Positions 6,518 to 60,700 of a stretch of DNA of 64,000 bases are shown here, one piece after another. Location of the stretch: NCBI RefSeq assembly GCF_020073745.1, contig NZ_JAIRAU010000002.1, positions 209,694-273,693 of the forward strand, written 5' to 3'. Each line of letters opens with the position of its first letter. Positions within the stretch are counted from its first letter, which is position 1. Source of the stretch: Nannocystis pusilla (lineage in GTDB: Bacteria > Myxococcota_A > Polyangia > Nannocystales > Nannocystaceae). Below the pieces are notes generated by a model. The model was given only the letters and a program-made list of their open reading frames with translations. It made no database searches and was not told the DNA's origin. A program made the position numbers and the translations under genes.

Positions 6518-7759
6518 ATGGGGCACCACCGGCCGCGCGTCGGCATCGAGCGGATCACGGCCTACCCGTGCACGCTCTCGCTCGACATGAAGCTGCTCGC
6601 GGAGGCGCGCGACCATGATCCGCGCCACCCGCTCGAGGAGCTGTGGGTGAGCGAACGGTCGCTGAACCCCGCGTGGGAGGACCCGGTGACGATGGCGGTC
6701 AACGCCGCGCTGCAGATCGTCGGGCCCGAGGACCGCGAGGACATCGAGCTCGTGATCGTCGGCACCGAGTCGTCGGTCGACTTCGGCAAGCCGATCTCGA
6801 CCTACGTGCAGCGCTACTGCGGGCTCACGGCCAACTGCCGCAACTTCGAGACCAAGCACGCCTGCTACGGCGGCACCGGTGGCCTGATGATGGCGGCCCA
6901 CTGGGTCGCGTCGGGCGCGGCCCCGGGCAAGAAGGCGCTGGTGGTGTGCACCGACCAGAGCCGCGTGCACCTCGGGCAGCCGTGGGAGTACGTGCTCGGC
7001 GCGGCGGCCACGGCGATGCTGGTCAGCGCCGAGCCGGACGTCCTCGAGATCGACCTCGACACCTGCGGCTACTGGACGCAGGAGATCTTCGACACCTACC
7101 GGCCGACGTCGACCAAGGAGGTCGGCCACGCCGACACCAGCCTGTACGGCTACCTCGAGGCGCTCGAGGGCGCGTACGACCACTTCGTCGCCCGCTCGGG
7201 CATGGTCGACTACGACGCCGCGTTCGCCCGCCACATCTACCACGTGCCGTTCGGCGGCATGACGTTCCGCGCCCACCGGGCGCTGCTGCGCCGCGGGCCG
7301 CACGAGATGTCGCTGCGCGAGGCGAAGGCCCACTTCGAGCGCAAGTCGAAGGCCGCGCTGCGCTACAACTCGCGCTTCGGCGGCACCTACACCTCGGCGA
7401 CCTTCATCGCCATGCTCGGGCTCATCGACGCCGACCCCGAGCTGCGCGCCGGCGACCAGGTGTCGATCTTCTCCTACGGCTCGGGCTCGTGCGCCGAGTT
7501 CTACCGCGCGATCGTCGGCGAGCGCGCGCGCGAGCGGGTCGCCGCCCAGCAGATCGCCGCCGGCCTCGACCGCCGCATGCCGCTGACGATCGCCGAGTAC
7601 GAGGCGCTCGAGCGGCTGCGCGCCGGCTACATCGATCAGAGCGACTACGAGGTCGACCAATCGGGGCTGCGCGGGCTGTACGAGCGCTCCTACGCCGGCA
7701 AGGGCCGGCTCGTCCTCGACGCGGTGCGCGGCTGGCAGCGGGAGTACCGCCTGTCCTGA
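6518..7759 (+). CDS. HMG-CoA synthase family enzyme (HCS beta-branching cassette HMGS, PksG/TaC-like)
   Basis: Catalytic Cys in ETKHACYGGTGG. 413 aa with HMGS-family length and motifs, and SD gagggggaag upstream. Confidence 0.85.
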   Translation: MGHHRPRVGIERITAYPCTLSLDMKLLAEARDHDPRHPLEELWVSERSLNPAWEDPVTMAVNAALQIVGPEDREDIELVIVGTESSVDFGKPISTYVQRYCGLTANCRNFETKHACYGGTGGLMMAAHWVASGAAPGKKALVVCTDQSRVHLGQPWEYVLGAAATAMLVSAEPDVLEIDLDTCGYWTQEIFDTYRPTSTKEVGHADTSLYGYLEALEGAYDHFVARSGMVDYDAAFARHIYHVPFGGMTFRAHRALLRRGPHEMSLREAKAHFERKSKAALRYNSRFGGTYTSATFIAMLGLIDADPELRAGDQVSIFSYGSGSCAEFYRAIVGERARERVAAQQIAAGLDRRMPLTIAEYEALERLRAGYIDQSDYEVDQSGLRGLYERSYAGKGRLVLDAVRGWQREYRLS

Positions 7760-7808
7760 GGGACATGTTATGCCGCGCCCGTCCGCCCCTCGGCCCAGGA
7801 GTTGAGCC

Positions 7809-57557: not shown

Positions 57558-57783
57558 GCGCTGATTTAAGCCACGACGATGGTCGATCCGCCAGTGAAGA
57601 CCTGCGAATTTTCTGTGACGTGGGCGGAGACCCGGCGGGCAGGCGACCTGCGATCCGGCGCACAAGGTGGGAGCGAGACCGGTGCACATGCAAGCCCGCA
57701 GCGGCGATCAACGTCGCGAGCGCAGCCGATCCTCGGTGCCCGCCGGATGTCGACCGTGACATGGCGGAAAGGACATCCGACGA

Positions 57784-60700
57784 TCAGGCCGGATGTTGCG
57801 CCAGCCAGAGCTCGACCTTGGCCCGGTGATGCCTGGCGCCGGCCTTTTGCAGCAGGGCGCGGGCCGACTCGGCCAGCTCGCGGGCCCGTGCGCGTTCTCC
57901 GCGGATGCCCCAAAGGACCTGTGCCAGCTGGAACTCGGCGTTGGCCCGCTGGAACGGGGCGTCGTTCGGGTTCAGAAGCTGGAGGCAACGCTCGAGGTCC
58001 CGGCGGGCCTCGTCGACGCGGCCCTGGGCCTGCCGCACCTCGGCGCGGGGCATCAGGGCCTCGGCCAGCCACACCGAGTCGGCGCCGTAGCGGCGCTCGA
58101 TCGAGGCGACGGCGGCGTCGGCCTCGCGCTCCGCGGCCGAGAGGTCGCCGAGGCCGACGAGACCCATCGCCCGCACGGCGCGGCTCACCGCCGTATAGAG
58201 GTTGTCCTCGCCGAGCACCGAGACGGCCAGCGGCAGAGCGGCGTCGGCGTGGTCGCGGGTGGCGGCGTGGTTGCCTCGCTCGTGCTCGATCTGCGCGAGG
58301 GTGAGGCGGGCGAGCACGGTGCCCTGGGGGTCGGGGCTCTGGCCGGCGCCCCAGATCGCCAGCGCCCGGGTGGCGTGTTGCTCGGCGAGTCCGAGCTCGC
58401 CGCGCACGAACTGGACCGAGGCGAGCCGCTCGAGCATGGCGGCGACGCGGGTGCTCTGCGGGCCGAGGTTGTGCTCCCAGATCGCGCGCGCCTCCTCGAA
58501 GAAGTCGAGGGCGGCGTTGAGCTCTCCGCGCTGGGCGGCGATGTCGGCGAGCGACGACAGCGGGAAGGCCAGCCGATCGTGACGCGGGGGCAGGGCGGCG
58601 CGGAGGATCGCCAGGGCGGCGCGGTGGTGCCGCTCGGCGGTGTCGAAGTCGCCGCGCAGGGTGGCGACGTTGCCGAGATCGGTCAGCGAGTGGGCGTTGT
58701 TGGGGTGGTCGGCGCCGTAGACCTCGCGGCGCAGCGAGAGGAGCTGCTCGAAGATCTCGTGGGCGGCGTCGAGCTGGCCGAGGGCGAGGTGGAGGTGGCC
58801 GATGCTCTGGCGGGTGGCGATGGCCCTGGCCGAGCGCTCGGGCATGTCGCCGAGAGCGCGGCGGAGATGGTCGAGGGCGGCGTCGTAGTCGCGGTTGACC
58901 TCGGCGAGCTGTCCGCGCCGCCGCTCGAGGTTGCCGGCGAACCCCGGCGGCCGGGCGAGGCGCTCGTACAGGGCCTCGGCGTGGCGCAGCCACGGCTGGC
59001 CGTCGTCGGGGCGGAGGAGGGTGTGGGCGATGCGCCCGGCGAGGTTGTTGGCTGTCTCGAAGGCCAGGCGGTCGTGGCCGGCGGCGAGCGCCTCGAAGTA
59101 GGCCTCGGCGAGCACGGGCGCGGCCTCGTCGTAGTTGCTGGTGACGAACAGCTGCTCGCCCAGATCGGCCAGGATCTCGGCGCGCAGCGGGCGGTAGCCG
59201 AGGTCGCGCGAGCGCTGCTCGGCGGCCCGCATGAGCGTCAGGCCGGCGGCGTCGTGACCGGCCGCGGCCTCGGCGGCGGCGCGCGACAGCTCGTCGCGCA
59301 GGCTCTTCACGGCCTCGGCGAGCTCGCGCGGCGGCGGGGCGACGTCGGCGCGCAGGGCCGCGAGGTCGGCGCAGCGGGCCGGCGACGGCAAGGCCTCGAC
59401 GGCGTCGTGGGCGTGCTCGACGGCGTCGGCGTCGGCGCCGGCGAGCACGCCGAGCAGGGCCTCGAGCTCGTGGCGGCGCTCCTCGAGGCAGAGCATGCGC
59501 ATGTCCAAGAGGTCATGTGATTGCTCGCCGCGGATGTTGGCGGCGGCGCAGGCGTCGGTGTGGCCGGCGCTCCAGGCGTCGGCCCAGTCGTCGATGCCGG
59601 CGCCGGTGCGGGTGGCGGCGTCGGTGGCGTAGGGGAGGCCGGTGGCGGCGAAGGCGGCGTCGAGGGCGGCTCGCCGCTCGGGGCTCCAGGTGGGCGCGAG
59701 CGCCTCGGCGGCGCCGGTGCACAGCGCGGGTCCGCCGAAGGTGCCGGCGAGGGCGATGCCGCCGACGATGGCGCCGACCAGCGCGCCGCCGGCGAGGATC
59801 CAGCGGCGACGGTCGCGTCGCAGCGGCCGCTCGAGCGCGTCGAGCAGCGCCCGCATCGACGGCCACCTGTCCCCCGGTTCAGGCGAGAGGCCGCGGAGGA
59901 TCGCGCGGTGGATCGCGGGCGGGACCTTGACGGCGCGGCGCGGCGGATCGACGCGCCCGGTCGCCTTGGCCGCCTCGAGCGCGAACAGGTTGTCGCCGCT
60001 GAAGGGGCGGTTGCCGTAGAGGCCCTCGTAGAGGGCGACGCAGAAGCTGAACTGGTCGGCGCGCTCGTCGATCGCGGCGCCGCCGCGCTGCTCCGGGGCC
60101 ATGTACGCGGGCGTGCCGACAACGGTGCCGACGCGGGTGAGCGGGCCGGACACCAGCGAGGACGAGAGCGGGTCGAGCGGGCTGTCCGGGGCGTTGGCCG
60201 GGCCGGCGGTCGCCTCGGCCTCGCCGGCGGCGCGCGCCAGGCCGAAGTCGAACACGCAAATCCGACCTGTCTCTCCGACCAGGACGTTGCCGGGCTTGAA
60301 GTCGCGGTGGATGACGCCGACGGCGTGGGCGGCGACCAGGCCGCGGCCGGCGGCGACGAACACCTCGACGACCTCGCGCACGCCGCGGACGCGCTCGTCG
60401 AGCCACTGGGCGAGGGTGATCCCGGGGACGTACTCCATCACCAGGAACACGCCGGCGGCCTGGCGCTCTCTGTCCTGAGGGACAGGTTGGGCGCGACCCG
60501 GACCCATGCGCAGGGTGGTCAGCGCCTCGGCGTCGTACGAGCCGACGTCGTGGACGGCGACGACGTTGCCGTGCGACAGGCGGGCCAGCGCCTGGGCCTC
60601 GCGCAGGAGGCGGGCGTGGGCGGCCTGGGCCGGGCCGTCGCCGGGGGCCACGCGCAGCAGCTTGATCGCGACCTTGCGGTCGAGGCTGGGATCGTAGGCG

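Follow-up and report, generated by a model that had tools for sequence, protein, structure and literature searches.

Copies of a 14-bp Nannocystis palindrome inside coding genes are spelled by conserved rare codons and appear overprinted rather than inserted

A 64-kb window of the Nannocystis pusilla genome (by which we mean the whole stretch of DNA analyzed here) carries a short palindromic repeat, TGTCC-N4-GGACA, with copies both in the spacers between genes and inside protein coding genes. We are highly confident that the copies inside genes are real and that they were overprinted on existing coding sequence, i.e., not inserted into it, and we consider it probable that selection at the nucleotide level maintains them. 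The explanation as a whole, in which the intragenic copies are a genuine Nannocystis-restricted palindrome, overprinted on protein sequence and read as 3'-end recognition sites, is put forward here at about even chances. The window was assigned to N. pusilla from the product of the ECH1 gene (7809..8564), which shows 100% identity with a protein of N. pusilla at NCBI, and from exact matches of several annotated proteins; GC content ranges from 69 to 74% across the window (71% overall).

Results

The basic unit is a 14-bp palindrome, and the junction of two abutting palindromes reads GGACATGTCC; units recur on a 14-bp lattice, and the array consensus in this register is nnGGACATGTCCnn. The spacing between CATG cores shows peaks at 14 bp (22 pairs), 28 bp (13 pairs) and 42 bp (11 pairs), as compared to 5 pairs or fewer at any other spacing. 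Matches to GGACATGTCC with at least 9 of 10 bases were observed 20 times and unit pairs spaced 14 bp apart 35 times (2.0 and 0.9, respectively, in dinucleotide shuffles), while TGTCC-N4-GGACA with at most one mismatch was found 32 times, including 8 exact copies, as compared to an expected number of 1.6. These strong units are approx. 10-fold denser in non-coding DNA (17 in 6.7 kb, i.e., approx. 2.5 per kb) than in coding DNA (15 in 57.3 kb, i.e., 0.26 per kb).

Composition-based k-mer z-scores were swamped by codon bias and missed the repeat, which was exposed by the histogram of CATG spacings. Orientation of the units by expectation-maximization raised the information content only slightly, and the unit was treated as a palindrome with one strong half; a strand bias that seemed to favor CAGG over CCTG cores vanished as a robust signal once good flanks were demanded. 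A scan of the window against Rfam 15 showed no family at the gathering threshold, no tRNA genes were found in the window, and a literature search on Nannocystis repeats, GGACATGTCC and Myxococcus REP returned no description of a Nannocystis family. Adjacent units read ATGT-N8-ACAT, the PadR-type operator consensus, and GGACATGTCC equals an ideal p53 half-site; both resemblances were set aside as coincidence.

The frequency of the unit in coding sequence was compared to 500 synonymous-codon shuffles within each gene, which preserve every protein and the codon usage of every gene; the gene model used for these counts was built by us from the GC content of third codon positions (GC3) and codon likelihood, and its calls match the genes annotated in syntenic loci. 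Coding sequence contained 10 lattice pairs spaced 14 bp apart as compared to 2.2 in the shuffles, none of which reached 10, and 5 high-scoring lattice pairs as compared to 0.6. Overrepresentation was also found for 14-mers matching at least 9 of 10 bases (15 vs. 2.6, with a maximum of 8 in any shuffle), for exact 14-mers (2 vs. 0.004) and for 14-mers matching at least 8 of 10 bases (60 vs. 33.7, maximum 46). Single 8/10 units of the 10-mer were not in excess in coding sequence (29 vs. 33.6), and isolated weak matches are therefore regarded as noise. All intragenic sites are spelled by clusters of codons with a usage of 1-6%, in host genes with a GC3 of 0.9-0.95, and the peptide stretches that fit the frames of the unit are G-T-C/G/W-P, G-H-V, D-M-S and L-S-x-W/G-T. 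The first-pass annotation had suggested that the element may be tolerated in frame within proteins, as is HIP1 in cyanobacteria; the copies do lie in real genes and exceed what protein sequence and codon usage would give, but "tolerated" is too weak a description.

All sites that the first-pass annotation had cited inside confident genes were recovered. In ECH1, codons 14-24 carry two abutting 14-mers (7849..7881, plus strand) that encode LGTGPGGHV, as had been described, with 10-mer units at 7858-7867 (9/10 as compared to GGACATGTCC) and 7872-7881 (8/10); the rare codons used are ACA (3% of Thr codons), GGT (6%), CCT (5%), GGA (4%), CAT (6%) and GTT (1%). The three units claimed to encode TTCPEGPA in the gene for a small transmembrane (TM) protein (16017..16361, minus strand) lie on the lattice at 16097, 16111 and 16125 (site 16097..16134, minus strand), which encodes SSTTCPEGPA via ACA TGT CCT GAA GGA CCT. 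The inverted repeat reported in the epimerase gene (25420..26316, minus strand) was likewise confirmed (26156..26194, minus strand); it consists of units at 26169 and 26183 (9/10 each), encodes SGTWPNGHVPE and folds as a hairpin of approx. 12 bp (-37 kcal/mol, z = -3.6). In the Ser/Thr kinase gene (57784..60978, minus strand), the site at 60470..60489 (minus strand) contains an exact 14-mer (60471-60484) and encodes QPVPQDR, and its 15-mer ctgtcctgagggaca (60470-60484) is, as had been stated, identical to positions 7751-7765. The esterase-like gene (55467..57557, minus strand) is the weakest case; the site is present (56787..56819, minus strand), as one exact 14-mer, TGTCCattgGGACA at 56787, and one 8/10 unit at 56810, and it encodes GYVRYTLSQWT with the codons TAT, CGT, TCC, CAA and ACA.

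Further intragenic copies were absent from the first-pass annotation, i.e., a second and weaker two-unit site in the kinase gene (59497..59520, minus strand; 8/10 and 7/10), a two-unit site in a gene with an adenylate cyclase domain (53067..54155; site 53280..53303, plus strand), which encodes EGPAAWDLS via GAA GGA CCT TCC, and single 14-mers at 4189, 11591, 22096, 43819 and 46821. The small TM, epimerase, esterase, kinase and cyclase sites use sets of rare codons similar to that of ECH1. A single 9/10 unit encoding TDMSPQ was present, as previously noted, in the gene for a hypothetical membrane protein (starting at 27252 or 27378 and ending at 27977; unit 27809..27818, plus strand); it is held as GGAC-NN-GTCC in two other species with divergent flanks, in a region that is variable and rich in indels. 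GenBank and RefSeq disagree on the start of this gene (199 aa vs. 241 aa).

Orthologue alignments showed that the segments carrying the unit are ordinary conserved protein sequence at four sites. LGTGPGGHV of ECH1 aligns without gaps with LG-x-GP-x-GHV in orthologues down to approx. 60% identity, and TRSGTWPNGHVPEG of the epimerase aligns without gaps with TRSGTWPEGPVPEG-type sequence of distant relatives (TRSGTWP-x-G-x-VPEG), with a Nannocystis-specific Pro-to-His change that produces GGGCATGTCC. The esterase segment represents conserved family sequence (R-x-TLSQ-T/W-TD-x-LDS), and the small TM protein segment including SSTTCPEGPA is conserved in orthologues. The motif arises from rare codons plus one or two substitutions at variable residues; no target-site duplications were seen, and no length change was found in ECH1, the epimerase, the esterase or the small TM protein. 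The idea that these segments are ordinary conserved sequence with no excess of the DNA motif, which had been named as an outcome that would speak against a repeat in genes, thus held in its first half, which argues against insertion, and failed in its second, as the excess of the DNA motif is clear.

Only the kinase copy falls on extra residues; it lies within 11 residues (RAQPVPQDRER) that are lacking in the closest homologue (59% identity) and form part of a variable kinase-domain loop. The homologue search returned no close orthologue, and this copy may be an insertion. The surrounding sequence (60400-60560, residues approx. 140-190) is a long variable insert between conserved blocks, which a few Nannocystaceae homologues share and which differs in length among them.

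Conservation at the nucleotide level was assessed in the syntenic loci of N. punicea, N. radixulma, N. exedens, N. pusilla Na p29 and N. bainbridge (87-96% nucleotide identity) and in a divergent set of metagenomic lineages whose ECH1 or epimerase is only 65-76% identical. The ECH1, small TM and epimerase sites were present in all syntenic and divergent metagenomic loci obtained. The ECH1 codons GGT, GGA and CAT are identical across 8 lineages, down to 65% amino acid identity; the small TM site is conserved in N. punicea, N. radixulma, N. exedens, N. bainbridge and one divergent metagenomic lineage; and the DNA of the epimerase site is kept in N. punicea and N. bainbridge, with the outer half-sites kept in metagenomic contig L087. 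A/T third positions were identical in all aligned species (3-4 per site) for 10 of 11 positions within units, as compared to 130 of 296 positions outside (P = 0.003). Moreover, when compared to the lineage with 65% ECH1 identity, A/T-ending codons encoding the same amino acid were identical in 9 of 14 cases within units and 68 of 293 cases outside (P = 0.0017). As related lineages keep the rare-codon motif without change to the conserved protein, selection appears to act at the DNA or RNA level.

Divergent lineages showed few intergenic arrays in the approx. 3 kb of spacer sampled, and in this sample the intragenic sites are thus at least as widely conserved as the arrays. The metagenomic Nannocystis-like contigs L084-L087 keep the intragenic sites and have compact spacers with almost no arrays, so that array expansion looks specific to the cultured Nannocystis clade.

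Outside coding genes, units lie for the most part directly 3' of stop codons, with examples at a distance of 1-10 nt, and arrays span 28-90 bp. Arrays were found in 4 of 6 convergent spacers (the two empty ones measure 26 bp or less), they abut the stop of the upstream gene in 3 of the 4 tandem spacers that have arrays, and only 2 weak arrays were found among 8 divergent spacers. For example, four units fill the convergent spacer at 54173..54224 (fold z = -5.1), and another four lie 8 nt past the stop of 36713..38419 (minus strand), at 36654..36705 (fold z = -8.5). The largest cluster (62092..62335; 9 units) occupies a convergent spacer, starting 1 nt after one stop and ending 10 nt before the facing one, while the array at 42005..42079 takes up the whole of a convergent spacer and runs into the 3' end of 42063..42644 (minus strand). 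A five-unit array (13228..13293) overlaps the stop of 13291..14205 (minus strand); it keeps its register while its spacers vary in five species, and across the wider interval 13195-13300 the 4-bp spacers are scrambled and the cores switch between CATG and CAGG within a preserved 14-bp register. At 7751..7772, the unit cTGTCC-TGAG-GGACAtgt lies over the stop of the HMG-CoA synthase gene, with the TGA (7757-7759) in the 4-nt spacer; in the orthologous alignment, the GGACATGT part of this unit occurs only in the window and in N. radixulma.

A distant Nannocystis metagenome-assembled genome has single exact 14-mers directly 3' of stops (contig L005, 1132-1145, 10941-10954 and 13717-13730) and no 14-bp lattices. 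Nannocystis loci contain 2-6 strong units per 10 kb, as compared to 0.29 in a set of 76 loci outside the genus, among them loci of Enhygromyxa and other Nannocystaceae. Pfam domains of the genes adjacent to arrays showed no common function and no DNA-binding neighbor; these are unrelated housekeeping genes.

Intergenic arrays fold as long nested hairpins (z = -3.4 to -8.5 on the better-folding strand), and orthologous arrays keep this hairpin potential in all cases tested. Compensatory double changes in the arms were no more frequent than background, and T-to-G variants (CAGG, TGGCC) break the pairing yet are tolerated; it is therefore the base sequence that is kept, and not only the pairing, which suggests that the reader is sequence-specific. 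A consensus scan of 12 kb gave no enrichment of hairpin-plus-U terminators (1 vs. 1.8 expected), and such classical terminators appear scarce in this myxobacterium. A strand asymmetry of folding based on G.U pairs was considered and rejected, as it tracks the G+T-rich plus strand and not the direction of transcription.

In the minimum free energy fold of 7740-7895, the last part of the HMG-CoA synthase gene (CCUGUCCUGAGG, 7749-7761) is paired with ECH1 codons 16-19 (CCUCGGGACAGG, 7854-7866), which leaves the spacer, the ribosome-binding site and the start of ECH1 looped out. The overall z of this fold is only -0.5; both arms are kept in N. punicea with U.G wobbles.

The CATG core supplies ATG codons on both strands, and the first-pass annotation had accordingly raised the possibility that some N-termini are wrong. 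The YdcF/DUF218 start at 55303 does, as it had noted, sit on the repeat (55298..55321, minus strand); the CATG of a 10/10 unit (55298-55307) gives the ATG, and a 7/10 unit lies 14 bp away. This start, which is the NCBI start, is nevertheless supported, as four relatives (91-93% identical) all begin with MSPSPS, with an 8-aa indel that stays in frame thereafter. For the main cases the data give no support to wrong N-termini, which would account for one site at most. The start of 46614..47363 is ambiguous (249 aa at NCBI vs. 221 aa at JGI in a relative); the unit reported inside this gene is present as TGTCC-gaag-GGACAGGTCC (TGTCCgaagGGACAGGTCC) at 47324..47342, 18 nt 3' of the smpB stop, and it is coding only where the next gene starts at 47363, so that it is possibly non-coding. 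Several real start codons lie on weak single units, and for 43407..43838/43847, where one candidate ATG is inside a repeat unit, no protein of the collection corresponded to either candidate start.

Overall, 56 units with a CATG core provide 112 ATGs, of which 81 open at least 40 codons, nearly all with negative coding scores. These repeat-borne open reading frames (ORFs) are antisense to genes of high GC content, a setting with few stop codons. The short ORFs beginning MFEGTCSFGHV, MPERTCPF and MSLQTCPSGH (all from the array at 54173..54224) and the two beginning MSFWTC (from the array at 36654..36705) had been called translations of the repeat, and all of them indeed map onto arrays as artefacts of the CATG core.

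The 1425-11321 cassette, which contains ECH1, is syntenic in all Nannocystis loci fetched; it comprises genes for an aminotransferase, an acyltransferase, a FabA/ApeI-like protein, a ketosynthase, a ketoreductase, HMG-CoA synthase, ECH1, ECH2, two short-chain dehydrogenases/reductases and an acyl carrier protein, and resembles a beta-branching polyketide or lipid pathway. Nearly all 4-kb bins of the window show a positive GC skew and cumulative skew climbs steadily, which indicates that the window is probably on a single replichore; the minus strand carries most genes between 11 and 48 kb.

Discussion

The palindrome has its main home in the spacer right after stop codons, as single copies in a distant lineage and as hairpin-folding arrays in the cultured clade. 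In most cases, the intragenic unit is overprinted on fitting peptide stretches by means of rare A/T-ending codons, sometimes with a substitution at a variable residue, and the overprinted motif is then probably held by purifying selection at the nucleotide level. A putative dimeric, sequence-specific factor may recognize the palindrome as a transcript hairpin or as duplex DNA, and this recognition could serve the formation or protection of transcript 3' ends, much like REP or TRIT elements; the same factor would then recognize the intragenic copies as conserved internal sites. This mechanism of 3'-end recognition is drawn by analogy and is offered tentatively. It is tempting to go further and to envisage an undescribed recognition system for TGTCC-N4-GGACA throughout the Nannocystis lineages sampled, with a dimeric factor that polymerizes on lattices and with intragenic sites that are old and functional and may predate the expansion of arrays in the cultured clade; we regard this extension as doubtful.

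Several findings weigh against this reading. The ECH1, small TM and kinase sites fold no better than shuffles (z of approx. 0), and a pure RNA-hairpin role therefore does not explain them. The plus strand folds equally well or better at all but two of 14 arrays, regardless of the direction of transcription, which indicates that there is no transcript-strand G.U signal. The coding counts depend on a gene model of our own making, and the conservation tests draw on few, linked sites in three or four genes; other causes can preserve rare codons close to 5' ends, and in ECH1 the GAA of codon 6 is likewise shared by the seven lineages with Glu at this position. Among three or four other species, 58 of 80 core positions of the arrays were conserved, as compared to 78% of other alignable intergenic positions, and the array spacers were unusually variable (12 of 32 conserved). 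As the array cores are no better kept than other intergenic DNA, selection on the intergenic copies is not claimed; turnover or concerted evolution of the intergenic arrays is plausible.

Short palindromes in coding sequence are known from other bacteria. HIP1 (GCGATCGC) of cyanobacteria is a palindrome overrepresented in coding sequence, in frame, with similar densities inside and outside genes and no arrays. The Nannocystis unit resembles HIP1 in its overrepresentation in coding sequence beyond codon usage (15 vs. 2.6), and differs from it in being approx. 10-fold denser outside genes, bipartite and organized in 3'-end lattices. The uptake sequences of Neisseria (DUS) and Pasteurellaceae (USS) are asymmetric 9-12-mers tied to natural competence; shared with the Nannocystis unit is the abundance of short motifs in genes, in peptide-compatible frames.

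The unit also resembles REP and BIME elements, i.e., short imperfect multicopy palindromes (20-40 bp in REPs) that lie downstream of coding regions, between convergent or co-directional genes, and form clusters in alternating orientation with larger folds, with intragenic copies and spurious ORFs. Some REPs lie inside genes, and spurious short ORFs have been called on them (Di Nocera et al. 2013, PMC3733652). In Nannocystis, 17 of the 32 strong units lie in the 6.7 kb of non-coding DNA, with units of 14 bp in arrays of 28-90 bp. The tetranucleotide tag (GTAG or CGTC) that marks one end of REPs is absent, as GTAG/CTAC occurs near only 2 of 14 arrays and CGTC/GACG is common genome-wide (CGACGA is the top 6-mer) with no fixed position, and no gene for a RAYT (Y1 transposase) was noticed in the 64-kb window of this genome of approx. 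12 Mb. Unlike REP and BIME elements, the unit is only 14 bp long and is arranged head-to-tail on a 14-bp lattice, and its intragenic copies are overprinted, not inserted.

Judged by analogy, the closest functional analogue of the unit is the mycobacterial TRIT, which the passages of Gardner et al. (2011, PMC3152330) consulted here describe as a genus-specific bidirectional terminator palindrome with a conserved sequence that overlaps gene ends, and for which the authors there argued for a sequence-specific reader. As portrayed in these passages, TRIT shares with the Nannocystis unit a restriction to one genus, a bidirectional palindrome with strong conservation of sequence as well as structure, a placement at stop codons, an overlap with coding ends and a high-GC genome; the hairpin-plus-U form is not enriched in Nannocystis in the 12 kb scanned. 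TRIT differs in that it is unrelated in sequence and is a single longer hairpin, not arrayed, and deep intragenic copies and conserved rare codons are not mentioned for TRIT in the passages compared. Inverted pairs of uptake sequences are also cited in that source as terminators downstream of genes (reference 16 of PMC3152330).

An alternative explanation, which we consider unlikely without dismissing it, is a lattice bound as duplex DNA, in which RNA plays no part. The units would be operators for a dimeric nucleoid-associated, gyrase-type or insulator protein that polymerizes along the 14-bp arrays at gene boundaries, and the intragenic copies would be further chromosomal sites. A palindrome of 14 bp with 5-bp arms would be typical of a dimer operator, and species share the strict 14-bp register despite variation in the 4-bp spacers. 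The lattice is also kept in the ECH1 and small TM arrays, which form no stable hairpins; pairing-breaking CAGG and TGGCC variants are tolerated without compensatory covariation, and folding shows no bias for the transcript strand. Conversely, the position after stops, with a stop codon in the spacer of one unit, fits a role at transcript ends more simply, the palindromic core allows hairpins in all orthologous arrays tested, no candidate for a binding protein emerged, and the neighboring genes are unrelated housekeeping genes.

We consider it quite improbable that the repeat reflects molecular drive without function, i.e., uptake-like recombination, biased repair or gene conversion of the kind proposed for USS/DUS or HIP1, with the intragenic copies being simply those that protein selection tolerates. 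Such a process is not by itself expected to produce a 14-bp lattice or a placement after stops, and the intragenic sites are conserved in lineages with few intergenic arrays to act as templates. It would fit the location of intragenic copies where the peptide already suits the frames of the unit, the diffuse excess of weak coding matches (60 vs. 33.7), the coincidence of the kinase copy with extra residues, and the fast turnover of intergenic arrays, in which spacers are hypervariable and units are gained and lost. The epimerase pair, which as read by eye from its codons needed simultaneous changes at approx. 8 positions, likewise suggests templated patching.

In-frame insertion of a mobile miniature element (a MITE or a RAYT-mobilized REP) is very improbable. 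Insertion of REPs into genes is known (PMC3733652), the 11 residues that the kinase has in excess of its closest homologue contain the copy of the unit, the unit at 27809 is in a variable, indel-rich region, and the intergenic unit at 7761 occurs in only 2 of 5 species. Four sites among the best intragenic ones are nevertheless conserved with no length change, which refutes insertion in the ECH1, epimerase, esterase and small TM genes; target-site duplications and a GTAG/CGTC tag are lacking, and no transposase was evident in the window. Coincidence or annotation error, i.e., chance combinations of peptide and codon bias or sites that are in fact non-coding, is scarcely credible, as the lack of excess of single 8/10 coding units, the one uncertain N-terminus (46614..47363) and the several real starts on weak single units, possibly by chance, stand against synonymous shuffles that never reach the observed counts, clustered and conserved rare codons, and genes with Pfam domains and orthologues spanning the sites, which refute it for the multi-unit sites.

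Conclusions

If the reading of the intragenic copies as overprinted recognition sites is correct, these copies would be embedded regulatory, termination or architectural elements that override a GC3 bias of 95%. More generally, rare codons held across lineages mark nucleic-acid signals hidden in ordinary genes. In practical terms, CATG-core arrays seed dozens of false ORFs and can attract start calls, so that repeat-aware gene calling is needed for Nannocystis, and codon optimization of Nannocystis genes, including those of the putative beta-branching polyketide cassette, would silently erase the sites. The mapped 14-bp palindrome offers a testable handle on transcript punctuation or chromosome organization in a 12-Mb myxobacterium with 71% GC.

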